The notes: generated by a model not told the origin, from the sequence alone. A stretch of DNA of 32,000 nt from Candidatus Heimdallarchaeota archaeon (GCA_030668875.1 DAOVER010000009.1:54597-86596); one strand, 5' to 3'. Counted from the stretch's first letter, positions 5,698 through 20,792 are shown. Translations and numbers: made by a program.

Positions 5698-6429
5698 TCA
5701 TTGTTCTTTTGAATATAAGTTAATCATATCCCTCGTTTTTTTAGGACAGTCAGTAATTATTCCATCAACCTGTTTCTTAACAAGTTTTTGAATATCCTTT
5801 GGTCTATTTACAGTCCATGGATAAACTTTCTTCCCAAGACTGTGGTAATAATCTACATGAGAAGAAGACAATAAGCGATAATAAGGATTAATAGCAGAAA
5901 TGAAGGAGTTCTTAGCCATCCTCTTTCCTTTTTTTGCAGGAAATAAGAATAGATATGCGAGAGCATAATCTAAAGCAGAATCACTTAGTCCAAACATCAC
6001 ATCAGAGAGAAAAGAACTTACAACGATTCGGTTAGAATCTGCACCTATATTGTTAAGAAAATCATCGAATTGATTTTTTGTCACAGAACACTTTATTTCA
6101 ATATTAAACTTAATTTTGGGGAGAAAACTCACTAGTACATTTTCCAGAAGTGGTATGTCATCCCCTGAGGGAAGCTTCATATTCTGAATAGCTTCTAGCT
6201 TTGTCTCTGCTATGACATATTCAAATTCTTCGAACTTAATTACTGGATCGTGATGAACTATAAAATTTCCATCACTTGTTAGATGAGTATCTAACTCTAT
6301 CATATCTGCTTTTTGTTGAATAGCTAGTTCAAAGGCTTTCATGGAATTCTGATAAGCATCTTCAGAAGCACCTCTGTGGGCGATTACTATAGGAGAATTA
6401 TGACCTGACATCAAATTATATGAAATCAA
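5698..6429 (-). CDS. Glycerophosphodiester phosphodiesterase (GDPD, UgpQ-like)
   Basis: VIAHRGAS, ADMIELDTHLTSDGNFIVHHD, FNIEIK, WTVN, VDGIITDCP. Confidence 0.93.
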   Translation of the reverse strand: MISYNLMSGHNSPIVIAHRGASEDAYQNSMKAFELAIQQKADMIELDTHLTSDGNFIVHHDPVIKFEEFEYVIAETKLEAIQNMKLPSGDDIPLLENVLVSFLPKIKFNIEIKCSVTKNQFDDFLNNIGADSNRIVVSSFLSDVMFGLSDSALDYALAYLFLFPAKKGKRMAKNSFISAINPYYRLLSSSHVDYYHSLGKKVYPWTVNRPKDIQKLVKKQVDGIITDCPKKTRDMINLYSKEQ

Positions 6430-6523
6430 ACCATCTGATTAACTTTGTGCAAAATATCAAGTTTTTGTTTTTCTTATTCTCGATTCTCGACAGATTTTTA
6501 AAAAAATAAGTGGGGGAGTATAC

Positions 6524-7777
6524 ATGGAATATAAGATTAAAGACATTAATCTTGCCAATGAAGGCAGGAAAAAAATTGATTGGGCAGAATCAAGGATGCC
6601 TGTTATGATGGAGTTAAGGAAAAAATTCAGTGAAACAAAACCATTAGCAGGAATGAAAGTCGCTGGCTGTCTTCATGTCACAAAAGAAACAGCTGTTTTA
6701 GTTGAAACACTCGTAGATGTAGGTGCGGAAGTTGCTTGGAGTGGATGTAATCCGTTATCAACAAAAGATGATGTCGCTGCTGCTTTGGCTGAAGAGAATA
6801 TACCTATTTTTGCATGGTACGGAATGTCTACTGAAGAATTCTACTGGGCCATTGATAAAACACTTGAGATGAAACCAACACTAACACTTGATGATGGAGC
6901 AGATCTTATTTTTAGGGTTCATTCTGATTTTCCTGAGCAAGCTGAGCAGATAATTGGAGGAACTGAGGAAACAACAACTGGAGTTCACAGATTACGTGCA
7001 ATGGATAGAGCAGGCAAATTACTGTATCCAGTTATTGCAGTCAATGATGCTGAGACTAAAAGTGATTTTGATAATGTATACGGAACTGGTCAATCAACTC
7101 TTGATGGTATTTTAAGGTCAACAAACATCATTATAGCAGGCAAAATAGTTGTTATAGCAGGATATGGCCATTGTGGTAAAGGTCTAGCTAAGAATGCTTC
7201 GGGTTTAGGAGCTGACGTTATAATAACTGAGGTTGATCCCATTCAAGCTTTGAAAGCAGCTATGGATGGATTTCGTGTTATGCTAATGGATGAGGCAGCA
7301 AAGGAAGGGGATCTATTCATCACAGCTACAGGAATGAAAGATATTCTGGTTGAAAGACATTTCAAAGTTATGAAAGAAGGAGCTATTATCTGCAATACAG
7401 GCCATTATGATGCGGAAATTAGTATAAGTGATTTGGAGAAACTAACAAAATCTAAACGTGAAATACGAGAAAATAATGAAGAGTATATTCTTGAAAATGG
7501 AAGAAAAATTTACTTACTTGCTAAGGGGAGACTAGTGAATCTCTCTGCAGCCGAAGGTCACCCCTCAGAAGTAATGGATATGTCTTTTGCAAATCAACTT
7601 CTAAGTCTAATTTATTTAGCTCAAGAAGGCAAGAATCTTGAAAACAAAGTATATGACATTGACAGAAAGCAAGATGAAAGCATTGCTAGTCTAAAACTCT
7701 CACTTATGGGATATGTTATTGATATTCTAACAGAGGAACAAATCAGATATCGTGACGCCTATTATGAAGGAACTTAA
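6524..7777 (+). CDS. ahcY: Adenosylhomocysteinase (SAH hydrolase)
   Basis: CLHVTKETAVL, GCNPLSTKDD, LDDGAD, EETTTGV, VNDAETKSDFDNVYGTG, GYGHCGKG, NTGHYD, GRLVNLSAAEGHPSEVMDMSFANQ. Confidence 0.98.
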   Translation: MEYKIKDINLANEGRKKIDWAESRMPVMMELRKKFSETKPLAGMKVAGCLHVTKETAVLVETLVDVGAEVAWSGCNPLSTKDDVAAALAEENIPIFAWYGMSTEEFYWAIDKTLEMKPTLTLDDGADLIFRVHSDFPEQAEQIIGGTEETTTGVHRLRAMDRAGKLLYPVIAVNDAETKSDFDNVYGTGQSTLDGILRSTNIIIAGKIVVIAGYGHCGKGLAKNASGLGADVIITEVDPIQALKAAMDGFRVMLMDEAAKEGDLFITATGMKDILVERHFKVMKEGAIICNTGHYDAEISISDLEKLTKSKREIRENNEEYILENGRKIYLLAKGRLVNLSAAEGHPSEVMDMSFANQLLSLIYLAQEGKNLENKVYDIDRKQDESIASLKLSLMGYVIDILTEEQIRYRDAYYEGT

Positions 7778-7796
7778 TTCCTTTTCTTATTTTTTT
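7778..7796 (+). terminator. Oligo-T terminator after ahcY
   Basis: ttccttttcttattttttt directly after the stop codon. Confidence 0.45.
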
Positions 7797-7870
7797 ATCT
7801 CTAAAATAATGCCACAAGATTTTTAGGATAGAGTTTCCTATACAGAAATATAAGAAAAGGAGAATAAACC

Positions 7871-9205
7871 GTGATAAAGCATCTTCTAATTCTCACAACT
7901 TATGGTCAAATATTCTATAGTCAAGAATTTGAAAAAACAGAACAAACAGTTGATGTTGCTCTGACTGGAGGGTTAATGAGTGCGATTTACTCTATGACTT
8001 CTGAAACCCAAAAAGAAAATATCTCTGAGTTTGAACTAGTAACATCCAGAATCATTTTCCAAGAGGAAGACCAAGATTTACTCTTCGTCCTTACTGTCGA
8101 CAAAAGAATGGATATTAAGGATACAAACGAAATTCTAAAAGCGATCTCAAAAAGATTCTTCGAGAAACATGGAGAGCTAAGAATTGATGGGTTAATCCTA
8201 ACTGATTTCGAGAAAGATGCCACAGAAATAATATACAAGAAGCTTTGGTATCTAAATACACAAGATAGAAAGTTTAGAGTATGGGATTATTTAGCAACAA
8301 TATTTGTCACCCTAGCACTGTGTTGGTATTCTCTTCTCCTTTTTGGTTCTCCACAGATTGTAGGTATGCCTGAATTTGGTATAAAGACCTTTGTCTGGGA
8401 AAGCCTTCTGCAAAGGATAGATGATCCAGGAGGATTTATACTGCAGTTACTGTTTTTAGTGGCAGTCATCGCAGTTCCAGCTGTTGGAATCTACTTGCTG
8501 TTTAAATTCACACATGTTAAAGATATTTTTCGTTTTCCAAGAGATTATCTCTCAAGACCAAGCAGAGCAAGCTATTCAGAACTCCTGCCCAATTATTTCC
8601 TACTTACAATTCTAGTATCGTTCCTAATCTATGTGAGTTTCATGGCTTTTGGAGGAGGATATTTCTCTGAATTGACAGTTTATCCCTTATATGCTGGAGG
8701 GCTGTATTCTGATCTGAATCAACCTTTCGATTTAGGAAATATAGGTGCGAGTATACAAGTGAGTGATATAGGAGATCAAGTATTGATAGGAACAACATCT
8801 TGGTTAACATGGGTATTTGCCTTTCCACTAATTTATTCGCTACTAATAGGGGAAAAGAAATGGCTAAGAATCTATAAAAATTCAGTTTTCATTGCTTCAA
8901 TTACTATTTTCATTCTAATAATATGCTACATATTTGCTGGAGTCAAATATCTTGAAGCGGTTGGATTTCATCCTAAGGATCCTGCAACATTTAGAACGGA
9001 GCAACACTTGCTAAACTTTCAATTACTATCCACTATTCCGCTTAATATTTTCTTCTACGGATTCCTCTTGTTTTTGGGTATAGGCGTGAACAAAGTATCT
9101 CCTTCCAAAACAAGAATTCCTTCTGTAATTGCTTTAGGTATTGGAATTTATTCAACACTAATTATACAGAGGTTAATATTTTTTGCCTTGGTCGCACCTG
9201 CTTAA
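7871..9205 (+). CDS. Longin-like domain fused to a ~7-TM integral membrane domain
   Basis: The N-terminal ~125 aa show longin beta-beta-alpha-beta-beta-beta-alpha order (LLILTTYGQIFYSQEF; LTGGLMSAIYSMTSE; ISEFELVTSRIIF; LLFVLTVD; TNEILKAISKRFFEKH). About seven hydrophobic segments follow from residue ~140 to the C-terminus. Confidence 0.75.
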   Translation: MIKHLLILTTYGQIFYSQEFEKTEQTVDVALTGGLMSAIYSMTSETQKENISEFELVTSRIIFQEEDQDLLFVLTVDKRMDIKDTNEILKAISKRFFEKHGELRIDGLILTDFEKDATEIIYKKLWYLNTQDRKFRVWDYLATIFVTLALCWYSLLLFGSPQIVGMPEFGIKTFVWESLLQRIDDPGGFILQLLFLVAVIAVPAVGIYLLFKFTHVKDIFRFPRDYLSRPSRASYSELLPNYFLLTILVSFLIYVSFMAFGGGYFSELTVYPLYAGGLYSDLNQPFDLGNIGASIQVSDIGDQVLIGTTSWLTWVFAFPLIYSLLIGEKKWLRIYKNSVFIASITIFILIICYIFAGVKYLEAVGFHPKDPATFRTEQHLLNFQLLSTIPLNIFFYGFLLFLGIGVNKVSPSKTRIPSVIALGIGIYSTLIIQRLIFFALVAPA

Positions 9206-9295
9206 CGAAGGGTGGGCCCCCAATCTTTTTCTTATATTCTCTTTAGAAAGTTTTATATCAGAATTTTCCTCTTGTAAAAAAGAAAGTGATTTCCA

Positions 9296-10471
9296 GTGCT
9301 AAGATTCACTATACGCTTCTTCTTTCACAATAAAAAAAGAACATTACAAGCTACAATGACGCTTACCTTAGCATTGGTTATTTTCATTTCTACAACCCTT
9401 CTAGTGCGAGGATATGCAGGAAATATTGCAGGGATGGCATCAATTATTAGACCATCCCCTTATTATCTTATAACTGAATCTGATAAGAGTTTGTCAGAGA
9501 GCAGACTAGGCTTTGAGGTCTATGAGTTTCTTGAAAGTTATTCTATCGATACACCAAATGTCGATGTGGTAGTACCACAAATTTACATCCAAGTAACTGT
9601 CGAAGGGGAAACAGGAGAAAGAATAGATACGCATTTACGCCTACTTAATTTTACAGAATTTGAACTTTATCAAACTCATGCTTATACCTACACATTTTCT
9701 CAATTAGAATCAACCGAGCTAATTATGGGACAACATCTTGCATCATCACTCTCTTCAGGAGTTGGGGCAAATCTGGAACTAGAAAGCTCTGAAATTTATA
9801 TTAATGAGACATTCTCAATGGTCTATGCAAATAATCTAACTGTAGCAAATATTATCAAATCAGGTCAAGAGTATGACCTTGAAATATTAGGAGACATCAA
9901 TGAGTGGCTGCCAATATTAGGTTTAGATTATTATTCTTTTATTGAATTCAAGGTTCTAGATACGAGGGAAGTGGATAAAATCAATGAAGACATAACTGAA
10001 GAATTTAGTTATATAGAGATCACAGAAGAAAAGCAGACACAGAATTTCATCCTTTATGCGACAGAAGAAGTTATTAGAACTCTAACTCTACTTCAAACAT
10101 TGTTCTTCGTTCTGATGTTAGTGTCCATAAGTTATAGCATCTATACACTTGTCAAAGAGAGTGAGGAAGAAATTTTCATTTTAAGATCAATCGGAGCCAC
10201 GAAAGTTCATATCGTGATACTCTTCATGATGCAAGCTGTTCTCATCGGAATAATTTCTTCAATACTAGCAATAATAATCGGGTATCTCTCAGTTACTGCG
10301 ATTGTTGCTATAGTTTCATCGACTATTGGTTTACCCTTTTTAGCACTAAACTTTGAAATTAGTTTAGCAGGAATGATTTTCCTTTTTGCCATAGGTTTGT
10401 CATTGCTTTCTGGGATATATCCATCGTTAGAAGCAGCGAAAATTAAAGTTATCAGGAAGGATACTCAATGA
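9296..10471 (+). CDS. ABC transporter permease, FtsX/MacB/LolE (ABC3) family
   Basis: One N-terminal TM, a MacB-like extracellular domain (ELIMGQHLASSL) and three C-terminal TMs with the EIFILRSIGAT motif (canonical EIG.LRA.GA). Confidence 0.88.
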   Translation: MLRFTIRFFFHNKKRTLQATMTLTLALVIFISTTLLVRGYAGNIAGMASIIRPSPYYLITESDKSLSESRLGFEVYEFLESYSIDTPNVDVVVPQIYIQVTVEGETGERIDTHLRLLNFTEFELYQTHAYTYTFSQLESTELIMGQHLASSLSSGVGANLELESSEIYINETFSMVYANNLTVANIIKSGQEYDLEILGDINEWLPILGLDYYSFIEFKVLDTREVDKINEDITEEFSYIEITEEKQTQNFILYATEEVIRTLTLLQTLFFVLMLVSISYSIYTLVKESEEEIFILRSIGATKVHIVILFMMQAVLIGIISSILAIIIGYLSVTAIVAIVSSTIGLPFLALNFEISLAGMIFLFAIGLSLLSGIYPSLEAAKIKVIRKDTQ

Positions 10472-13400
10472 ATTTCCGATCAATTTTCCTCTATAATATC
10501 ATACCTAAGAAGAGAATGCTTATTGCATTCATTGGGTTTTTGATAAGTTCTACAATAATTACAGGTGGTGGAATACTTCTTACAAGCATTGTTGAATCAA
10601 CTACTTCATATTTAGGTGAAAGTGATGATGTTCTTGTAATTTCAAATCCAGCAGCATCAACACCTTATACAAGTGTTGTACCCTTAGAATTAGCTGAAAC
10701 TATAAGAACGATATATGGTGTTATAGATGTTAGTCCAGAAGTCATGACTGCTGCTGTATATAAGGATAAGGCAGTATACTTCAGAGGAGTAGATATAGCA
10801 AAATTCTGGGAGTTCACTGAAGTAACTTATTTAGAAGGGGGGCCTCTGAGTGAAAATGATACTTACGATGTAAGTGTAGGTAAAAATTATGCAGATAGAA
10901 ATGACTTAGAAATTGGAGAATTGATGACAGTATTTTCTACTAGGTCAGACGCTGCAGTAGAACTAAGAGTTAAGTCAATATTCATCACAAATACCTTGTT
11001 AGATGATGAAATCATCGCACCATTATGGATCGGTCAATTTTTCTCATTTGAAACATTCAATTTTATAACACACATTAGAGTAAAAATTGATTTAGATTTA
11101 ATTCCTTCGAAGGAAACAATAAGAGAGTTGGTAAACAGTGAATATGGCTTAACTACCATTATCAATACACCTGGAGGATCGACTGAACTAAATGCAACCA
11201 TCTATATCAGAACTGGTAAAGGAACTTCAGTTGAGGAAAGGATAATAATTAACAAGTATTTTGCAACGTTTTCTCTATTTTTTGGAGAGTATGAAATTCA
11301 AGCAGAAATCGACGGGATATTTTCTGATCCATTTAAGTTCATTCATGATCACAATACTACAATAGACATATTTGTAAACTATATTGAACGAGAGATTCAG
11401 TTTCATGTTATAACGGATGAGGATGAACCAATTAAAGATGTAAGTGTAACAGTTTACAATAATGAAGAAGGATTACGTCTTTTAGGGGTTAATACTCGAC
11501 GAATGTATACGAATCAAGATGGATATGCATCTCTAACTATTGGAAATGGAAGTTACACAGCGGAGTTTAGTTATGGTGAATATTGGAATTCCTTTAGCTT
11601 CGTGACTCAGGAAACAAATGATTATGAAATTACACTAATTAGTAGACATCCGCAAATAACAGTCAAATCACCTCTAAATTTTTCAACGATTATTGGTAAT
11701 GAGCTTAATATTTCAGTTATTGCAACTACTGGTTACTCTATTCACTTCTATCCCGATGGTGATTTAGGGAAAATTCAAGAATATCACTATAGCACAGTAG
11801 GAATGGTTCCGCCTAAAAGTATGTTGGTACCTTTCGAAGATGGTTTTCACAGCGTCACCATATTAGCTTACAATAATGATTATTTACAAGATTTTGATAA
11901 AAGCAAAAACTATGCGACAACTACTTTATACTTCACAATCTCAAGTGATTTTCCAACTACTATTGACTTCTTGAATGTTATGAATGGATCACAGATATAT
12001 CCTCTAACTATCTTAGAACTAAATGAGACAATATCTTTCAATCAAGGTTTATTGTATAAATGGAATAATGATGACTGGATAAAAGCCAATGAAGGTTATA
12101 TTGTCAGCCCTAGCGAGATAGGAATTCAAAAACTACAAATAAAAGCAGAAACAACCGAAGAAAGTAGAATCATCACTTACTATTTCATTACTAAAAACTC
12201 TCCTTACAAAATTGGTATCATTAATCCACCTGAAGGATTAAATTTCAAAGAAAATGACACATTACAAACATGGTTTAATCCTACATTTACGAATATTACA
12301 TATCACTGGGACTCTAATCCTAATACTCCTATTGCAAAAGATGGAGAGATTATTGTTCAAAGTTTGAGCGAAGGAAATCACACTTTATATTTAGAGATTT
12401 CTACTGGAAATTTCAGAAAATATGAGATAATGTTTGATAACACGTCACCTAACATAACAATGAGTGTTACAAATGGATCTTCAGTTGAAACAGGTAGTTC
12501 TTTATCTTATACAATCAATGAACTATTTACATATGTGATGTTTAGGTGGGACAATCAAGAGTATTCATATTCATATGACAACTCAATCCAAGTACCTGTA
12601 GAAAATGGTAACCATAATCTAAGTATCTGGATATGCGATCTTGCGGGTAATGTGAGAAAAGCAAATTATACATATAATGTAATCAAGTTCGTAGGTTTTA
12701 CCCCAATAGATTTCTACTTACAAAATGAATATTGGGGACTCTTAAACCAAAGTTACATTGATCTACAGATCATTACTGAACAATCATTATTTAAAATCGA
12801 TTACGAGATAGATGGACCTTCAATATTGTCCTTCTCACGAACAAACTTAGAAGAAGAAAGAGTATATCTGCACCCTGGATTATATAGTTTATCGGTTACT
12901 TATTACCTAAACTTATTTGAGAGCAGACAACGAACCTTTGAATTTCAAATCTGTGACGGACAAAATGCATCTGAACTATATGGTCCTGCACTAGATGTTA
13001 CCTATCCTTGGAGCATTATTGTAACATTCCCATACTTTGATGTTTCATTTACGATTAATAATATATCGAGTACATTTGTAACAGATGGAACTCATGATAT
13101 TTTTTATATGTTAACAACCTATCCAGGGGTTCAATACAATACAAAATACATTATAGATACAGAATTACCAGAGATAACTATAGTAACCCCCAATAAAGGA
13201 ATTGAAGTAACGGATGAATTTCTTGAAGTTGAAAGTAACGCTGTAGAGGTTTACTTCAAACAAGAACATGACTCAAGAATATTCTCTTACAGCAAAACAA
13301 GCGTATTTTTAGATTATAATCAAGAAGGTAGACAATTAATTACTTTCTTTCTAGTAGATTCTTATTATAATACAAAGACAGTGTCTTATGTGTTTTATAA

Positions 13401-14664
13401 TGGTCTTAGTTATGTTCCAGTAATTTTAGGGTTTCAGGTTTTCTTGTCTGGAGATATCTATAATATCTCCAATCTGGATGTATCGATAACGAGCGAATAT
13501 AATAGTACATCATGGTCAGAAAAAACAGATGGTGATGGAAAGTTGAGTATGCAAATTTATCCAGGCATGTTCGAGGTATACTTCGTATACAACGCTATAA
13601 CTTACAACTTCCTTTTGGATACTGGAGATGGATTAGATCAGACGATTTATATTGGAAACTCACTTGTTGAATTGACTATTCTTGATTATTATGCCGATAG
13701 TCCAATAAGCAATCAATATTGTGTAATTAGAGATCTTAGTGGTAATAGGATAGTTTTTCTTCAAACAAATTCACTCGGAGAAATAAGTACACAAATACCT
13801 GCTGGTGATTATATCATATACTTTAAGCGTTCATATGAACAGCTTAGTTTACCATTCCAAGTTTACTCACAAGGACAGCAGCTTCTATTTGAAATTCCAT
13901 CACTCAAAAAGTGGGTACGATTTGATTTTGTTTATGATAATGGTTCAAAAGTATATAATCTTCCAGTCAGTCTCCAAACAGTTCTAGATGGGAACATTAC
14001 AACGAATACCAGATTGCATTCCAGCATTTCTTTATGGACATCATATGGCGTTGTGAATATTTCATATATACAAATAGACGGGAATTTTGTAACATTAACA
14101 CGCTCCTTTGAACCAGGGAGAGAAGTGATAACTATAACTATCAAGAGTGAAACTGATTCTCCATGGGATAAGATACCATTCAAACCAATAGCTGGATTCC
14201 CCTTCATAGTATCCCTCGCTTTGGAATATATGGACTATTATCTAAGTGGTAGTCTTTTGTTTACATATACATTAGCATACACAGAAATTATTCTGATTTT
14301 ATTTGTTGTAATTGCAAATATGTACTCCATCCTTCAAAACGTGTATAAAGAAAGTAAAAGAGAAACACGAATTCTCAGAATGGTTGGAGGAACAGTTACA
14401 AATACATTAACAACAGTATTTTCCCGTCTAGGTCTGGTTGCAGTGTTTGCATCATTTATTGGGTATGCAATTGGGTTGTCTTTTCTAAAAGTCCTATCAA
14501 GTGCAAATCAAACAGTATTCTTTGGTCATACATTCTCTCCTTCTGGAGGATTGTTTATGTTCTTGATAAATAGTGTTTTAACAATTTTTATTGCAATAAT
14601 TGCAACCCTCATCATCACTAGAAATGCTAGGAAAGAAAGAAGAATTGTTCACTCAAAAAGATGA
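10468..14664 (+). CDS. Giant FtsX/MacB-family permease with ~1000 aa Ig-like/carboxypeptidase-regulatory-like ectodomain
   Basis: ATGA overlap with the upstream permease. N-terminal TM and MacB-type domain (VYFRGVD; VSVGKNYADRNDLEIG), repeated beta-sandwich signatures (TNQDGYASL..G.Y; DNTSPNIT; DLAGN; DTELPEITIVTP; TDGDGKLS; TNSLGEIS) and C-terminal FtsX TMs with ETRILRMVGGT. Confidence 0.85.
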   Translation: MNFRSIFLYNIIPKKRMLIAFIGFLISSTIITGGGILLTSIVESTTSYLGESDDVLVISNPAASTPYTSVVPLELAETIRTIYGVIDVSPEVMTAAVYKDKAVYFRGVDIAKFWEFTEVTYLEGGPLSENDTYDVSVGKNYADRNDLEIGELMTVFSTRSDAAVELRVKSIFITNTLLDDEIIAPLWIGQFFSFETFNFITHIRVKIDLDLIPSKETIRELVNSEYGLTTIINTPGGSTELNATIYIRTGKGTSVEERIIINKYFATFSLFFGEYEIQAEIDGIFSDPFKFIHDHNTTIDIFVNYIEREIQFHVITDEDEPIKDVSVTVYNNEEGLRLLGVNTRRMYTNQDGYASLTIGNGSYTAEFSYGEYWNSFSFVTQETNDYEITLISRHPQITVKSPLNFSTIIGNELNISVIATTGYSIHFYPDGDLGKIQEYHYSTVGMVPPKSMLVPFEDGFHSVTILAYNNDYLQDFDKSKNYATTTLYFTISSDFPTTIDFLNVMNGSQIYPLTILELNETISFNQGLLYKWNNDDWIKANEGYIVSPSEIGIQKLQIKAETTEESRIITYYFITKNSPYKIGIINPPEGLNFKENDTLQTWFNPTFTNITYHWDSNPNTPIAKDGEIIVQSLSEGNHTLYLEISTGNFRKYEIMFDNTSPNITMSVTNGSSVETGSSLSYTINELFTYVMFRWDNQEYSYSYDNSIQVPVENGNHNLSIWICDLAGNVRKANYTYNVIKFVGFTPIDFYLQNEYWGLLNQSYIDLQIITEQSLFKIDYEIDGPSILSFSRTNLEEERVYLHPGLYSLSVTYYLNLFESRQRTFEFQICDGQNASELYGPALDVTYPWSIIVTFPYFDVSFTINNISSTFVTDGTHDIFYMLTTYPGVQYNTKYIIDTELPEITIVTPNKGIEVTDEFLEVESNAVEVYFKQEHDSRIFSYSKTSVFLDYNQEGRQLITFFLVDSYYNTKTVSYVFYNGLSYVPVILGFQVFLSGDIYNISNLDVSITSEYNSTSWSEKTDGDGKLSMQIYPGMFEVYFVYNAITYNFLLDTGDGLDQTIYIGNSLVELTILDYYADSPISNQYCVIRDLSGNRIVFLQTNSLGEISTQIPAGDYIIYFKRSYEQLSLPFQVYSQGQQLLFEIPSLKKWVRFDFVYDNGSKVYNLPVSLQTVLDGNITTNTRLHSSISLWTSYGVVNISYIQIDGNFVTLTRSFEPGREVITITIKSETDSPWDKIPFKPIAGFPFIVSLALEYMDYYLSGSLLFTYTLAYTEIILILFVVIANMYSILQNVYKESKRETRILRMVGGTVTNTLTTVFSRLGLVAVFASFIGYAIGLSFLKVLSSANQTVFFGHTFSPSGGLFMFLINSVLTIFIAIIATLIITRNARKERRIVHSKR

Positions 14665-14680: not shown

Positions 14681-17458
14681 TCAAACATAGACAAAACCAT
14701 AATATCCCTCAAATAACCATGAATTTGCTATTCTGGTAATATTAATTGAATTACCTTGAAATGCTTGCAGAGCATAGTCGTGATTTTCTACAATTCCTTC
14801 TAGATTTTCATACGCTATTTGAATTTCTATATTGTGTAAATATACTGTTTCATCTGGTAGAGTTAACAATGAAATTCGTAGAAAAGATTCTAGTTCAGGT
14901 TTTGAAAATCGGAAACTATTAGATTCTATTCTTACTGTTTCATTTGAAATAGTATTATATTCACTTCTAATAGTAACATTTATTGGTCCAGTTGTTTGAG
15001 CAGCTGTTAAATCTATTTCCGTTTCAATGGATCCTATATTTCCCATAATTTCTGTTGAACCTGGTGTCCTTGCAAGTAAACTTCCCTTATTCAGAGGCCC
15101 TACTAGTTGAATATCAACAGGTCCAACATATGGAGCGTAGCTGTTTGTAGTATACATTATGTATTCTTGATTCGAAAATCTCCATGTAAAGTAGTCATTA
15201 TTATTCATGAATCGATATACAAAGTAATCCCAATAGATTCGATCCAAATATGCAGGAAACCAATCATTGGATGTATTAAGAGCGACAAATATCGAAATAT
15301 CATATTGTTCGAAAAATTCAATCGTTCGCGTCACATTTTCGATTCCTAATGGAAAAGTAGAATTAGCTAACCCTGAATTTTCTATAAATCCAAGCATGAA
15401 TAGATCGATAACAGGTTGAGAGGAATAGTATTCAAGACCTGGTGTATTAATTGAAAGAATCACTAAATTATCTGCATATCCAAGACGGTTAATTGCGTCA
15501 ACTAGTTCTTGATATGATTCTCTTGTAGAATAGGAATACCTCATCTGAAATTCATCTAGATTAAATCCAGTGTCTATTAATAAAGCAAATTGAGCTAAGA
15601 ATGGCGTAAAAAACAGAATAAAGATAAGAAAACCAGAAATTATTTTTTGAAAATTAAACTTTTTATGAAAAATCTGTGAGTAGCTAATTTTCAATCTATT
15701 TTCTTGCCAGATAAGAAGGAAGGTTAGTAGGTTGAATAGGATGATATAACCTAACAACGACCAGATGTGGGTGTGAGCATGATACCACCGTAGATGGAAG
15801 TCTTCTGATACGACTTCAAATGGAATAACGGGATAAAGCGACAGGTACGCACTTGTTAAAATGAAGATACTAGCAAGAAAACCATCTCTCTCTTGACCGT
15901 CTCTTTTGTTGAAGAAAAAAACAACGGCTTCTATTCCTATTGCAAAAATAATTGCAATTGGAACAAGTATTGGGGAAAGGTATCTGATTGACCCATTTGC
16001 AAAGAATCCTTGCCAGAACACATAGAAGAATATTAACCAAAGCATCAACTCATTGTTCTTTTTGTGAGCTTTGATGAACCCAAATATCTTAAAGAACAAC
16101 CATGTTCCAGCAAACATTGCTGCAATTAAAATAGAAAAAGAGGAGGAAACAAAAGTTGCGATATGGGCATTTTCCAGATAAGTTGTTGTTTCAGGAAGAG
16201 CGATTCCTGGCCACGATAAGCTTATCTGATTCACGTGCAAGTTCACATAAAGATTAAGAAGATAATCTTGCACACCTGGGACAGATAGAATATGAATCCC
16301 CCATAATAATGCAGCTGCTAAGGGGAGAGAAAAGATGCCAAGAACAAATAACCAACGAATATACGAAAACTTCAACGTTTCACTTGATAAGATGAGATAT
16401 ATGCAAAATGCACATAAGAGGAAGATAAGAATACCCGTCCCCAAATATACCTCGAATATGGATTTTCGAATGAGCTGAAAAGCAAATCCAGCAACAATAA
16501 TCGAGCGAATAACTTTTCCTATCATATCTGAAGGCATTGCAACTAAAATTACTAATGGGATAACAAAACCACTGACTTTACTTAAAACACAACCACTTAG
16601 AGCTAATGACGCAAGTAGAGCATTATAGAGCTGTTCTTTGAAATTTTCACTTTTCAGAAATTTTTTGAAGAAGAAGTATGCTGCTGTTGTAAAGAATGTA
16701 ATGTAAATCTCTTGATAATATTGAAATTCATAAATTAAGAAAAAAGTAAAAGGAGTTGCTAATAAAGCAATTGAAGAAAGTAAAGAAGATTTCTTTGTTA
16801 ATCCTTCAATTTTTGCTATTTTATAACATAGTAAAACTACTCCAACAAGAAACAGCAAAGGAATCAGATGAATCATTTCTGATTGTGTTACAAAAAATCC
16901 ATACGCAAATAGAAGGATATTCACAGGTGGTTTGAATTGTGGCATAAAATTTAATTCATTAATAATTCCTAATTGCCCTGTAACAAATATTCTGAAAGAG
17001 TTAGGTAAATAAAAGTGCAAGAAATCCCATCCTCGAAGAGGATAAACTAATCCTTGAAGTGTGAAAAAGAAGATCATTAATCCTATTATAATTTGTAATA
17101 ATGTCTCAAGTCCTTGTGGGATTTTCTTCTTCTCCTTCAGAATGAGCATTGGAAGTTTCCTTCTTACCCAGAGATATATTTTGAAGACCAGATATGCAAA
17201 GGCAATTGATAAGTATACATATACAAATCGTTCTAAGATAGTTGTATTTTCTATTTTATCGGCAATTATTGCTATTATAAGCATGGGGACAACTAGAGAG
17301 ATTGTTCCAAAAATTAGAGATTCTACAAAATAATCTATATAGGAACTTGAAGAATCAATTTTCATTATTTTCTTCTTGAACACATCGACAATCAATAATC
17401 CCATTCCAAGTATTGAGACAATGGGTATTATGACCCTTATGTCAAGTTCTGTTCTCAT
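14681..17458 (-). CDS. GT-C fold membrane glycosyltransferase (ArnT/PMT/GT83-like), 925 aa
   Basis: More than 12 TM segments. First extracellular loop with WDFLHFYLP...KPP (acidic motif typical of GT-C), late IRYLSPIL (RY..P) motif, and a C-terminal extracellular domain (VILSINTPGLEYYS) with several N-x-S/T sequons. Confidence 0.75.
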   Translation of the reverse strand: MRTELDIRVIIPIVSILGMGLLIVDVFKKKIMKIDSSSSYIDYFVESLIFGTISLVVPMLIIAIIADKIENTTILERFVYVYLSIAFAYLVFKIYLWVRRKLPMLILKEKKKIPQGLETLLQIIIGLMIFFFTLQGLVYPLRGWDFLHFYLPNSFRIFVTGQLGIINELNFMPQFKPPVNILLFAYGFFVTQSEMIHLIPLLFLVGVVLLCYKIAKIEGLTKKSSLLSSIALLATPFTFFLIYEFQYYQEIYITFFTTAAYFFFKKFLKSENFKEQLYNALLASLALSGCVLSKVSGFVIPLVILVAMPSDMIGKVIRSIIVAGFAFQLIRKSIFEVYLGTGILIFLLCAFCIYLILSSETLKFSYIRWLFVLGIFSLPLAAALLWGIHILSVPGVQDYLLNLYVNLHVNQISLSWPGIALPETTTYLENAHIATFVSSSFSILIAAMFAGTWLFFKIFGFIKAHKKNNELMLWLIFFYVFWQGFFANGSIRYLSPILVPIAIIFAIGIEAVVFFFNKRDGQERDGFLASIFILTSAYLSLYPVIPFEVVSEDFHLRWYHAHTHIWSLLGYIILFNLLTFLLIWQENRLKISYSQIFHKKFNFQKIISGFLIFILFFTPFLAQFALLIDTGFNLDEFQMRYSYSTRESYQELVDAINRLGYADNLVILSINTPGLEYYSSQPVIDLFMLGFIENSGLANSTFPLGIENVTRTIEFFEQYDISIFVALNTSNDWFPAYLDRIYWDYFVYRFMNNNDYFTWRFSNQEYIMYTTNSYAPYVGPVDIQLVGPLNKGSLLARTPGSTEIMGNIGSIETEIDLTAAQTTGPINVTIRSEYNTISNETVRIESNSFRFSKPELESFLRISLLTLPDETVYLHNIEIQIAYENLEGIVENHDYALQAFQGNSINITRIANSWLFEGYYGFVYV

Positions 17459-19140
17459 GTTTGTTTGTCCTCATATTCTTTCTCGACATCATCTGCTGTT
17501 CTAGTAGCAGCAAAAACTTTCATTCTATCTATTTCTCTGAAATGTGTAATTGTTATGATTATAGGTATAGTTAGTGAGACTGCAGCAATTATAAACCATC
17601 CGAACAACGCATCACCTTTCCAGATGGTTTCCCAACTTGCGATATAATACAGAACTGCAAGTCCAAGTAATCCTATAGACCAAAGCGTATATTTAATTTT
17701 TGCACTCATTTTACCCATAGTTCGAGTTTTTTCTTTAACAGTTCGATCAAAATCTTTCTTAACACCTAGAAGAGCACTCAAGACAGCCCAAATGAGGAAG
17801 GATTGTGCTGTAAGCATGAGCATATAGAAAGCAGAAATAGTCCAATTCATTCCGAAGAAGCCACGAAGTTTGATCATTCTATCCTCTTTGCTTTCTCTAT
17901 ACCAAGAAACATAAGCCATTATCAAACTTGCAAAAGCAATAAGAAGTGGAGCAGCAAGTAGCAAGGGAACTGTATCGTTTAAAATTGGTCTAACAAAATT
18001 GAACTCTTCAATTTCATGTTTGGTTCTTAACATATACATAATATAAAGAAGAAGATTAACAAACCACATTGTTAACCCGATTATGGGTGTGAACAATGTA
18101 GACAAAATATCAACTTTGTTTATCACAGAGTTTTTACCTTTCAAAATTTTCCATAATCGTTTTCGTATGATTGATGTGATTCCATTAGTCCATCTCCACA
18201 CTTGGTTTATCATGCTTATAGGATTCCATGGAACTAACCCTCTAGAACAAATCTCATGAAGATAACGAGTTTTGTATCCCTTTGACATTAAAGCGAAGGA
18301 TGTATCAGTATCTTCAGCTAAAGTGTCATCATGAAATCCACCATACTCCAACAATAATTCAGTTCTAAACATACCTGTAGTTCCAGCAAAAATGACACCG
18401 TTCCTTGTTCCTCTACTTTTCTGATAAACATGGAAAAATTGTGTGTGGATATATGCACTGCTGCGCTGCAAATAATTATCTTGATTAACAAACATTGGCT
18501 TACCTTGTACTAATATTATATCATCTTCAGTAAAACCAGATAAGCAGGTACGGATGAAGTTTGGAGTAGGAATATGATCGGAATCTAAGATTCCGACAAA
18601 ATCACACTTGATATGTTTTAAAGCATTATTAATTGCTCCAGCTTTGAAACCTTTTCTTGAATCTCTATGGATGAATTTGACATTTCTTTCTTTGCAAAAA
18701 ACTTCAATATCAGTAGATTCTCCTGCAGGACTATCATCACAAACCACTACTTCAAAGCGATTTTTAGGATAATCAATATTTAATGCTCCATCAATTGTTT
18801 TGGAAACCACTGTGAGAGGTTCCTTATAGAAAGGGAGAAAGATAGCAACTTTGGGGAGAGGATCTGAAGATAAATATTTGTTTTTGTCATCCCTCAATAA
18901 GCGATATTCAGAAGAAGAACCGATATAATAGTATACGAACACAGAATAAAATGATGAGAATAATTCAATCAGCAATATGAGAAAATTTAGAATTAAACCT
19001 ACTATTGCTTTCCAACCACTTAGACCAAATTTGGTTGTATATTCAGTAACAATATAGATGCTACTTGTAATTGCATAGTAACCCAGAAAAGCAAATAAAA
19101 TAACCGCAAGTGAGTACCATAGTGTTTTTTTCCAACCCAT
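17455..19140 (-). CDS. Processive GT2 glycosyltransferase, cellulose-synthase-like (paralog 2)
   Basis: CDDS, FKAGAINNAL, LDSDH (DxD), VQGKP, IFAGT, LAED (TED-equivalent), QVWRW (QxxRW). Two N-terminal and about 5-6 C-terminal TMs; no PilZ domain. Confidence 0.9.
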   Translation of the reverse strand: MGWKKTLWYSLAVILFAFLGYYAITSSIYIVTEYTTKFGLSGWKAIVGLILNFLILLIELFSSFYSVFVYYYIGSSSEYRLLRDDKNKYLSSDPLPKVAIFLPFYKEPLTVVSKTIDGALNIDYPKNRFEVVVCDDSPAGESTDIEVFCKERNVKFIHRDSRKGFKAGAINNALKHIKCDFVGILDSDHIPTPNFIRTCLSGFTEDDIILVQGKPMFVNQDNYLQRSSAYIHTQFFHVYQKSRGTRNGVIFAGTTGMFRTELLLEYGGFHDDTLAEDTDTSFALMSKGYKTRYLHEICSRGLVPWNPISMINQVWRWTNGITSIIRKRLWKILKGKNSVINKVDILSTLFTPIIGLTMWFVNLLLYIMYMLRTKHEIEEFNFVRPILNDTVPLLLAAPLLIAFASLIMAYVSWYRESKEDRMIKLRGFFGMNWTISAFYMLMLTAQSFLIWAVLSALLGVKKDFDRTVKEKTRTMGKMSAKIKYTLWSIGLLGLAVLYYIASWETIWKGDALFGWFIIAAVSLTIPIIITITHFREIDRMKVFAATRTADDVEKEYEDKQT

Positions 19141-19142
19141 GT

Positions 19143-20792
19143 CTAAACCTCGATATCATTTTTTTTCCTTGGAGTAAAATAAGGTTTGTTATGTCTCGTT
19201 GTCACATAGAAAAACAGACTAACGGGAAATGTTGCAACAAGCGAAAGTCCTAGAAGACCCAACACAATCCATAAACTTTGACTACCAAAGAAATCAAAAT
19301 AAGCTAAAACTATTAACCCAGCACCGAGAAGGGATATAATAGCAGAAACTGGAATGAAAGGTACTTTCTCGTTCCATTGATCCCTCCTTCTATCTGGCTC
19401 TCTTCTTCTGAAAATGGTTTTTATCACTGCATAGACAGTAAATGGGTTTAGAGTTAGTGCAATAAGGAAAAATAAGAGTAAATCAAAAATATTAATCTTA
19501 AATTCCCTACCTTTTTTGGAAAATAGAACGGCAATAATTGCTGAAATCTGATAAGAGATAGCTAGTGCAACAGGCATAATGATCAGAGGAGGAAAGTTTT
19601 CAGTGGGAAGACGGATAGCTTTGCTTCCAGTAAAGAACATTATAACATAAAAAAAGATTGTCAGGTACATCGACGAGGCAATGAAGAACAATAGAGTACT
19701 AAAGGAAAGGTCAAGCTTATCAAATAAAGACATTCTTCCTTTTAGTATGTTTTTCCATCTCAATTTCAGTGTGTGCATGCTTCCTTTTGCCCATCGGAGA
19801 ATTTGAGAGAGCAAAAGAGGAAAATTTGATGGAACTAAACCAAAACTACCATATTCATCAACTAAAACACTATCATATCCTCTGGTTAAAATTTGAATAG
19901 TTAAATCAACATCTTCGGTGAACGTTGCAATGGGGACCCCTCCAACTTCATCTAGAACTCTTTTCTTGAAACACGCAGTAGAGCCATTAAAAATAACCTT
20001 TTTACGTTTATTTTTTGATCTCTCAAATACCTCAAAAAACTGAGCATACATCACTGCTTCCCATATTTGTAATTTCGATTTTATATTTCGGAAATTAACT
20101 TTGGCTTGTACAAATGCAATATTTTCATCTTGTACTAACTTGGAGATACTCTTTTTAAGAAAATTTGGAGTTAATCTGTGGTCATAATCAAGAAACACCA
20201 CATAATCAGTCTTAACTTGCTTAAGCATAATGTTCAGCATACCTGCTTTGAAGTTGTAATTCTCTCCATAATAGATGTAAACAGCTCCATGTTTTTCAGA
20301 AAGGAGAGAGATTTCTTTATCATACTCAGGAGACTTCTCAGAGTCATCTCCAATAAGAATGTGGACTTTATTATGTAGATAATTAGAATCGCGTATAGAT
20401 TGCAATGTCTCATGAAGTACATCAAGGTTAGGGGAATGAATTGGCACCAATACACTTACCATTGGAAAATCTTCTATTGAATCATTAATCTCTTCCTCTT
20501 TAGCTAAAGGTATAGAACAAGTTGTACTCATGTGTTTGAATAACATTACTGTGTAGAAAATGCTCATAGCTTCAACAATCAACGACAGGAAATTGAGAAT
20601 TGCTTGAACAACAATGAGGGTAACCGATGATTCCAAAGGGGGGGTAATTACAGATCCTATTATTAAAACTAGAGACCAGACAAAATAAATTATTCCAACA
20701 AGCAAAACAGCAATAGTAAAAACAAATAGAAAAAACCCTAGGATTTTCCATGTTTTTGATTCTCGTTTTGTGTTTTGTTGATTAAATCCCAT
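19143..20792 (-). CDS. Processive GT2 glycosyltransferase, cellulose-synthase-like (paralog 1)
   Basis: GDDS, FKAGMLN, LDYDH (DxD), VQAK, IFNGS, FTED, QILRW (QxxRW). Two N-terminal and about 5-6 C-terminal TMs; no PilZ domain. Confidence 0.9.
   Translation of the reverse strand: MGFNQQNTKRESKTWKILGFFLFVFTIAVLLVGIIYFVWSLVLIIGSVITPPLESSVTLIVVQAILNFLSLIVEAMSIFYTVMLFKHMSTTCSIPLAKEEEINDSIEDFPMVSVLVPIHSPNLDVLHETLQSIRDSNYLHNKVHILIGDDSEKSPEYDKEISLLSEKHGAVYIYYGENYNFKAGMLNIMLKQVKTDYVVFLDYDHRLTPNFLKKSISKLVQDENIAFVQAKVNFRNIKSKLQIWEAVMYAQFFEVFERSKNKRKKVIFNGSTACFKKRVLDEVGGVPIATFTEDVDLTIQILTRGYDSVLVDEYGSFGLVPSNFPLLLSQILRWAKGSMHTLKLRWKNILKGRMSLFDKLDLSFSTLLFFIASSMYLTIFFYVIMFFTGSKAIRLPTENFPPLIIMPVALAISYQISAIIAVLFSKKGREFKINIFDLLLFFLIALTLNPFTVYAVIKTIFRRREPDRRRDQWNEKVPFIPVSAIISLLGAGLIVLAYFDFFGSQSLWIVLGLLGLSLVATFPVSLFFYVTTRHNKPYFTPRKKNDIEV

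Follow-up and report, generated by a model that had tools for sequence, protein, structure and literature searches.

A longin domain joined to a predicted seven-helix membrane domain in a Heimdall-type archaeon

Longin domains belong to the core machinery of membrane traffic in eukaryotes, where they are found in Rab guanine nucleotide exchange factors (GEFs), coat adaptors, and SNAREs. What such a domain might do when it is built directly into a membrane is the question raised by one gene in a 32,000-nucleotide (nt) stretch of DNA from Candidatus Heimdallarchaeota archaeon (GCA_030668875.1 DAOVER010000009.1:54597-86596), which is referred to here as the window and from whose first letter positions are counted. 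The gene lies at 7871-9205 on the plus strand and encodes a protein of 444 amino acids (aa), called here the longin-TM protein, in which a longin domain is followed by seven predicted transmembrane (TM) helices. The order to which the window belongs (Heimdallarchaeales by source names) is the archaeal lineage nearest eukaryotes. In a structural survey of the GTPase, roadblock, and longin proteins of Asgard archaea, only soluble forms and GTPase fusions are described (PMC10933270), and our search of the literature returned no description of a polytopic, membrane-embedded longin protein in Asgard archaea. Judged by its structure models, the longin-TM protein is a longin protein whose membrane architecture has not been described before and whose membrane fold is unmatched in the structures searched. 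A Mon1-type longin appears to be built into the membrane in nearly every sampled member of the order, which offers a concrete protein for asking whether the longin and GTPase modules of Asgard archaea act on membranes, and the same protein supplies a confidently predicted membrane fold without a solved counterpart.

The protein and its predicted structure

The features of the gene and its product are as follows.

7871..9205, plus strand: whole gene for the longin and seven-helix protein (P0001), stop codon included
7857..7862, plus strand: Shine-Dalgarno-like AAGGAG, read from the sequence, the GGAG end lying 8 nt before the GTG start
7871..8254, plus strand: longin domain, residues 1-128, probably cytoplasmic, assigned by secondary-structure order, Foldseek and VIA-align matches, and a profile match to longin domain 1 (LD1) of Mon1
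7967..7996, plus strand: GGLMSAIYSM, residues 33-42, core of helix α1, nearly invariant and aligning to the Mon1 LD1 helix
8279..8509, plus strand: hairpin of TM1, a putative external loop, and TM2, residues 137-213, the least conserved part, absent from short Asgard forms
8510..8590, plus strand: juxtamembrane helices, residues 214-240, probably cytoplasmic, with invariant R229-P230-x-R232-x-x-Y235 and five Lys/Arg
8591..9193, plus strand: five-helix membrane core, TM3-TM7, residues 241-441, with invariant W314, P319, N392, G405, and Q433

The open reading frame (ORF) is uninterrupted from its GTG start, and homologues begin with the same M-I-K-H-L-L. Since 64 protein clusters (at 90% identity) keep the full longin and seven-helix architecture down to 32% identity, a chance ORF can be excluded.

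The full-length AlphaFold2 model, which was built from an alignment of 27 diverse homologues, reached a mean predicted local distance difference test (pLDDT) score of 82.8 and a predicted template modelling score (pTM) of 0.82. Its longin part consists of strands at residues 2-9 and 14-19, a helix at 24-42, strands at 53-55, 59-66, and 70-77, and helices at 82-100 and 113-124. This order of elements (β-β-α-β-β-β-α-α over residues 1-128) is the topology of a longin and not of a roadblock domain, and at the level of fold the domain is accordingly a longin. When the longin part was compared with the Protein Data Bank (PDB) by Foldseek, the top 50 matches were all longin or related roadblock-type domains (Ragulator, MglB), and the best-ranked were longins, namely those of AP sigma/mu, TRAPP Bet5/Trs23, Sec22b, VAMP7, COPI zeta/delta, and Mon1-Ccz1, with TM-scores by target of 0.6-0.72. 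VIA-align, which is independent of Foldseek, matched the VAMP7 longin with Z 14.9 and a root-mean-square deviation of 2.2 Å over 115 residues, Sec22b with Z 14.2, Ykt6 with Z 11.4, and the Mon1-type fold with Z about 10-10.6; its first 33 matches were longin or SRX domains, followed by roadblock domains at Z about 9-10. An earlier note, made from the sequence alone, had described an N-terminal longin-like fold of ~125 aa with the helix motif GGLMSAIYSM, and both parts of that description are borne out: the motif forms the core of helix α1, and its positions G34, L35, S37, A38, and Y40 are invariant.

At the sequence level, the domain is closest to longins that regulate GTPases. The top Pfam match is Fuz_longin_1 (PF19036; the first longin domain of Fuzzy, Mon1, and HPS1), with E 0.0015 and 19.2 bits over residues 1-135, and the score is 16.0 bits with the whole protein, so that the gathering cut-off of 26.1 bits is not reached. 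Intu_longin_1 is also matched below threshold (E 0.011), and more distant relatives of the domain do exceed the Fuz_longin_1 cut-off. A longin-family profile of 36 sequences, including distant members, was searched against all PDB sequences; its best match was Mon1 LD1 with E 2.4e-4 (residues 117-200 of Drosophila Mon1), followed by SRX, AP mu/sigma, a synaptobrevin-like longin, and TRAPP. Because the profile reaches Mon1 LD1 at this level, the relation is real but distant, and by Pfam's own measure the domain is not a member. The same window genome contains 28 longin-profile matches in many architectures, and the longin-TM protein is the only one that carries a membrane domain. These matches lie in ORFs of 156-1190 aa (contigs C90, C88, C71, C19, and others), several of them in tandem, as at C19:6260-10824 and C44:11271-12137.

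The membrane region contains seven long hydrophobic helices (residues 137-158, 186-213, 241-261, 300-326, 331-356, 381-409, and 418-441) and two large loops (159-185 and 262-299), and hydrophobicity and models agree on the seven or so helices and two larger loops that had been read from the sequence. Modelled alone from 32 sequences, the membrane domain reached pLDDT 91.2 and pTM 0.89. Foldseek against the PDB returned nothing better than E 0.46 with TM-scores of at most 0.23, and VIA-align over 48,161 representative chains gave a best Z of 6.3, to a designed protein, with none at or above Z 8; this absence of a PDB match is no proof of a new fold. No Pfam family consistently matched the 32 members at E up to 1, and the domain was likewise without match in Pfam, NCBIfam, PDB sequences (queried with the protein alone and with the profile of the full-length protein), and an ESM Atlas feature search. 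The nearest shape in the ESM Atlas is the bacterial DUF6574 (PF20214), at a borderline TM-score of 0.46/0.51 over 191 residues, yet the core has no Pfam match to that family. An identity of the five-helix core with enzymes like CDP-archaeol synthase was considered and dropped, as it had neither structural nor Pfam support. The earlier note had named beforehand a match of the membrane part to a known transporter or enzyme family as counting against its proposal, and the searches above returned none. Among the invariant positions of the family there are no conserved acidic or histidine residues typical of catalytic sites.

The orientation of the protein can be deduced from the positive-inside rule. 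About 13-15 Lys/Arg are concentrated in the linker, the 214-240 segment, the turn at 327-336, and the loop at 410-417, whereas 5 Lys/Arg and 11 Asp/Glu are spread over the remaining three loops. This would place the longin domain and the 214-240 segment in the cytoplasm and the C terminus outside. Shorter relatives of the protein fit this topology, because their longin domain, with TM1 and TM2 lacking, runs directly into the same basic segment.

Family, distribution and conservation

The named members among the 64 full-architecture clusters are all from Heimdall-type archaea. In a sample of 200 Asgard genomes, the full-length protein was found in 27 of the 30 genomes of the window's order (family f1, 19/20; f2, 5/7; f19, 1/1; f20, 2/2) and in no other order. 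The gene is single-copy in the window's genome, and the order's other genomes typically have one full-length match each. An exhaustive profile search over 1.8 billion representative proteins added short forms of 328-427 aa, in which the longin domain is followed directly by an R-P-S/T-R motif and then by about five helices. These short forms come from Candidatus Ranarchaeia (P0081), from family f12 (loci L062-L067 and L085), and from Heimdall-labelled metagenome-assembled genomes; P0075 and P0090 also belong here. Their membrane part aligns with TM3-TM7 at an hhalign probability of 96.7% (E 3.9e-10, 202 columns), and the invariant positions common to the long and short forms are R-P-x-R, Trp and Pro as a pair in core helix 2, Asn in core helix 4, and Gln in core helix 5. 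Because the two membrane parts are homologous, the ancestral unit consists of a longin domain, a basic motif, and a five-helix core, and the TM1-TM2 hairpin was inserted in the window's order.

Comparison of the window protein with its most distant full-length relatives showed 47-59% identity in the longin domain, 33-52% in the motif segment, 23-32% in the core, and 16-24% in the hairpin. The juxtamembrane motif has a mean column conservation of 0.73, and the external loops are the most variable parts at 0.42-0.43. The strongest conservation is thus on the cytoplasmic side, in the longin domain and the juxtamembrane motif.

No fused or split forms were found among longer proteins, and the shorter matches look like fragments, both being weak negatives. 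One such protein, P0072 (174 aa, from a 43.5-kb Heimdallarchaeaceae contig), matches only about residues 182-353 of the family although the contig is long, and a frameshift or a split of the gene may be the cause.

Gene neighbourhoods

Relatives of the longin-TM gene repeatedly adjoin genes that make archaeal membrane lipids. At all seven f12-type loci, from two genera, the short form lies directly after a gene for glycerol-1-phosphate dehydrogenase in the same direction (NF002022, 477-494 bits, cut-off 413), and at three Ranarchaeia loci it lies directly before HMG-CoA reductase. The full-length gene is found directly before archaetidylinositol-phosphate synthase at L007/L008 and L053 (NF040950, 191 bits, cut-off 180), and at L054 it abuts a gene of the geranylgeranyl-reductase family. 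Four different lipid-pathway enzymes thus occupy about 4 of the 20 immediate-neighbour slots of about 10 lineages, compared to an expectation of about 0.2 of 20 if lipid genes are assumed to make up about 1% of genes. In the window's own genome, genes resembling those for glycerol-1-phosphate dehydrogenase and archaetidylinositol-phosphate synthase lie on other contigs. The genome, of 3.2 Mb, also contains 35 Ras-family matches, or one per 92 kb, and a small GTPase gene is found within about 4 kb of the longin-TM gene in 3 of about 10 lineages (L007/L053, L054, and L084). Three of the 35 matches are found on the same contig as the window and upstream of it (C74:39109-52942).

The neighbours of the window copy are of a different kind. 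The order kept in the window and in family f1 is a 235-aa ORF, a GDPD gene on the opposite strand, an S-adenosylhomocysteine hydrolase gene, the longin-TM gene, an FtsX gene, a giant FtsX gene, and a converging glycosyltransferase operon. Three of these genes are listed as context.

5698..6429, minus strand: GDPD-family glycerophosphodiester phosphodiesterase (Pfam GDPD, E 1.4e-29), two genes upstream of the longin-TM gene, its synteny being kept within f1
9296..10471, plus strand: 391-aa FtsX-type permease (Pfam FtsX), the downstream neighbour, listed as context and not as a shown partner
10468..14664, plus strand: 1398-aa FtsX-type permease with a very large ectodomain, overlapping the 391-aa FtsX gene by 4 nt

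Directly after the longin-TM gene, the FtsX pair is also found at L002 (LC_2), L009, and L056, whose proteins are 32-35% identical, so that the order of the longin-TM gene, an FtsX gene of about 390 aa, and a giant FtsX gene of 1300-1400 aa is kept in f1 and in these three. Neither this pair nor the lipid-synthesis genes had been foreseen in the earlier note. Strict co-occurrence or adjacency of the longin-TM gene with FtsX/MacB (ABC3) permeases was not found: f19 and f20 have their FtsX orthologue on another contig, away from the longin-TM gene, the 93% complete genome G054 keeps the longin-TM gene but shows no full-length FtsX orthologue (best match 36.6 bits, partial), and short forms never adjoin FtsX genes. 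A complex prediction of the longin-TM protein with the 391-aa FtsX protein scored 0.00; it was run without controls and is counted neither for nor against binding.

Both spacers of the longin-TM gene (7778-7870 and 9206-9295) have a T-run just past the preceding stop codon and, 25-45 nt ahead of the next start, a TATA-like element rich in A and T, the former T-rich stretch lying past the upstream S-adenosylhomocysteine hydrolase gene. These elements suggest that the longin-TM gene is a transcription unit of its own. The T-run and TATA-like element in the 90-nt downstream spacer likewise suggest a separate promoter for the 391-aa FtsX gene, and the FtsX link therefore looks like an old but dispensable adjacency.

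Some further observations concern the surrounding genes. The FtsX pair (9296-14664) is without a gene for an ATP-binding cassette (ABC) ATPase among the annotated ORFs of the window. The ectodomain of the 1398-aa protein exceeds 1000 residues and contains a carboxypeptidase-regulatory-like repeat, and its gene converges on the minus-strand glycosyltransferase operon, which comprises a 925-aa ORF (14681-17458) and two GT2 genes (17455-20792). In f12, the short longin and five-helix gene is always convergent with a conserved gene of about 1200 aa. The product of the latter, which has no Pfam match, looks like a giant surface protein, with an N terminus resembling a signal peptide and one anchor at the C-terminal end. 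Its copies are the following.

L062:8771-12370, minus strand: gene of about 1200 aa
L063:2979-6635, plus strand: gene of about 1200 aa
L064:8948-12634, minus strand: gene of about 1200 aa
L085:2378-5947, minus strand: gene of about 1200 aa, with a Sec23_trunk-like gene (6181-7797) just past it

A gene for MoeA (molybdopterin molybdenumtransferase) adjoins the longin-TM gene in two lineages, at L003:3144-4358, the locus of P0075, and at L052:9903-11087, in genus g4 of f2. On the Heimdall LC_2 contig MDVR01000060.1, a 279-aa gene (L002:3516-4355) carries a precomputed Pfam match to CCDC47 (PF07946), a family known in eukaryotes as a factor for membrane-protein biogenesis at the endoplasmic reticulum, and it may encode a eukaryotic signature protein.

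Proposed function and comparison with known systems

We tentatively favor, with somewhat less than even confidence, the idea that the longin-TM protein is a longin docking platform fixed in the membrane and tied to the biogenesis of membrane lipids or of the envelope. The membrane domain would hold the longin domain flat on the inner face of the cell membrane, where the α1 face and the juxtamembrane basic motif could dock a cytoplasmic partner, most likely one of the roughly 35 small GTPases of the genome or another longin or roadblock protein. Docking would then couple this partner to sites at which membrane lipids or the envelope are assembled, by analogy with the longin platforms that serve Rab and Arf GTPases in eukaryotes. 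A docking role fits the observation that conservation is highest in the longin domain and in the juxtamembrane motif on the cytoplasmic side, and candidate partners exist, since the genome holds 35 Ras-family and 28 longin-profile matches. The link to membrane biogenesis rests on the immediate neighbours, namely glycerol-1-phosphate dehydrogenase, HMG-CoA reductase, archaetidylinositol-phosphate synthase, and geranylgeranyl reductase. The earlier note had proposed a membrane anchor or receptor that recruits a GTPase or a longin partner; the kinship with GTPase-regulating longins and the conserved cytoplasmic face are in keeping with it, but for the recruitment itself neither a partner nor a clear enrichment of nearby GTPase genes came to light.

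Several points weigh against the docking platform. All Pfam longin matches of the window protein stay under the curated cut-offs, these analyses identified no GTPase or longin partner, and small GTPase genes show no clear enrichment around it, with three cases seen and roughly one expected. Eukaryotic longin GEFs act as dimers of longin domains. The category of lipid genes was defined after the neighbours had been seen, so that their enrichment is provisional, and the only lipid-related gene near the window copy is the GDPD gene, two genes away. In addition, the invariant intramembrane residues N392, Q433, and W314 suggest that the membrane domain is more than an anchor.

The main alternative is that the five-helix core is the working part of the protein, for instance by scrambling or flipping lipids, by sensing them, or by regulating the enzymes of ether-lipid synthesis, and that the longin domain is only a regulatory or dimerization module. 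Such a role is a possibility to be kept in mind, if a rather doubtful one. It would account for the adjacency of four different lipid-synthesis enzymes in four lineages, mostly co-directional and with gaps of 80-150 nt, as well as for a core in which N392, Q433, W314, and P319 are invariant and common to the short forms together with the surface R-P-x-R-x-x-Y motif, and for a membrane fold that is confidently predicted and yet unmatched. However, the longin domain and not the core is the most conserved part, conserved residues of the catalytic-site type are lacking, no similarity of the core to a solved transporter, scramblase, or lipid enzyme was found (the best Z of 6.3 being to a designed protein), and in f1, f2, and f19 none of the immediate neighbours is a gene of lipid synthesis. 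The docking platform and a lipid-handling core are not mutually exclusive. They are combined in a bolder version, which we regard as unlikely, where an ancestor-type, Mon1-like, membrane-integral platform would directly bring a Rab/Arf-like GTPase to the places where ether lipids are made, or activate it there, and the fold of the five-helix core would be a new one that handles lipids. If true, small-GTPase switching and membrane growth would be linked in a prokaryote, and longin-based systems of organelle identity would have a possible forerunner.

Other functions can be weighed on the same data. With its seven helices, an N terminus on the inside, two external loops of some size, and a longin of the GTPase-regulating type in the cytoplasm, the protein has the layout that could be expected of a surface receptor that passes an external signal through the longin domain to a small-GTPase switch, in the manner of a G-protein-coupled receptor (GPCR). 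This is improbable, as conservation is lowest in the external loops, the ancestral core is built of five helices rather than seven, no rhodopsin or GPCR fold was matched in the PDB searches, and a gene that is single-copy and near-universal points to a housekeeping role more than to a sensory one. The gene order kept in f1 and in three lineages as distant as 32-35% identity would support a role as an accessory or regulatory subunit of the downstream permease pair of the FtsX/MacB type, which has no adjoining ATPase gene; but the orthologue on another contig in f19 and f20, the absence of a full-length match in G054, the short forms away from FtsX genes, and the 90-nt gap with its possible promoter make this function quite improbable. 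A longin SNARE-like fusion protein is hardly credible. The longins of VAMP7, Sec22b, and Ykt6 are indeed the best structural matches (Z 11-15), but there is no SNARE motif and no Synaptobrevin Pfam match, and seven helices stand in place of a tail anchor. The defining heptad region takes about 60 residues, and only about 8 separate the longin domain from the start of TM1 at residue 137, which leaves no room for it; the SNARE reading was rejected on this ground, in agreement with the earlier note, which had seen no SNARE coiled coil.

Of the known systems, several agree with the longin-TM protein in part. Yip1 proteins have a five-helix layout with the N terminus inside and the C terminus outside, like that of the membrane core. 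Homology to Yip1 (PF04893) was nevertheless rejected at the level of profiles, since hhalign gave a probability of 0.5-0.7% against 23 Asgard Yip1 domains and Pfam gave no match; the window genome has separate Yip1 genes. The short Asgard forms (P0081, f12, P0075, and P0090) have the homologous longin domain, motif, and five-helix core, but differ in the absence of the TM1-TM2 hairpin and in adjoining genes for glycerol-1-phosphate dehydrogenase or HMG-CoA reductase instead of FtsX.

Among eukaryotic proteins, VAMP7, Sec22b, and Ykt6 are likewise membrane-attached longins, but they differ by a SNARE motif and by a single tail or lipid anchor. SEC22A and SEC22C combine a longin domain with several membrane helices and lack a functional SNARE motif. 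Their layout is the same, with an N-terminal longin directly before a multi-pass membrane region, but the likeness is one of layout and perhaps convergent, and searches of 1.8 and 5.8 billion proteins returned no eukaryotic full-length relatives and no sequence link to SEC22A/C. The first longin domain of Mon1, Fuzzy, and HPS1 has the same fold and is the nearest sequence relative of the window domain. Compared to the Mon1-type tri-longin Rab GEFs (Mon1, Ccz1, Fuzzy, Inturned, and HPS1/4), the window protein has one longin domain, not three, and whereas Mon1-Ccz1 is a soluble heterodimer that is recruited peripherally, its longin domain is fused to a polytopic membrane domain. By analogy, the longin-TM protein may work like the longin platforms of eukaryotes, to which it is distantly related.

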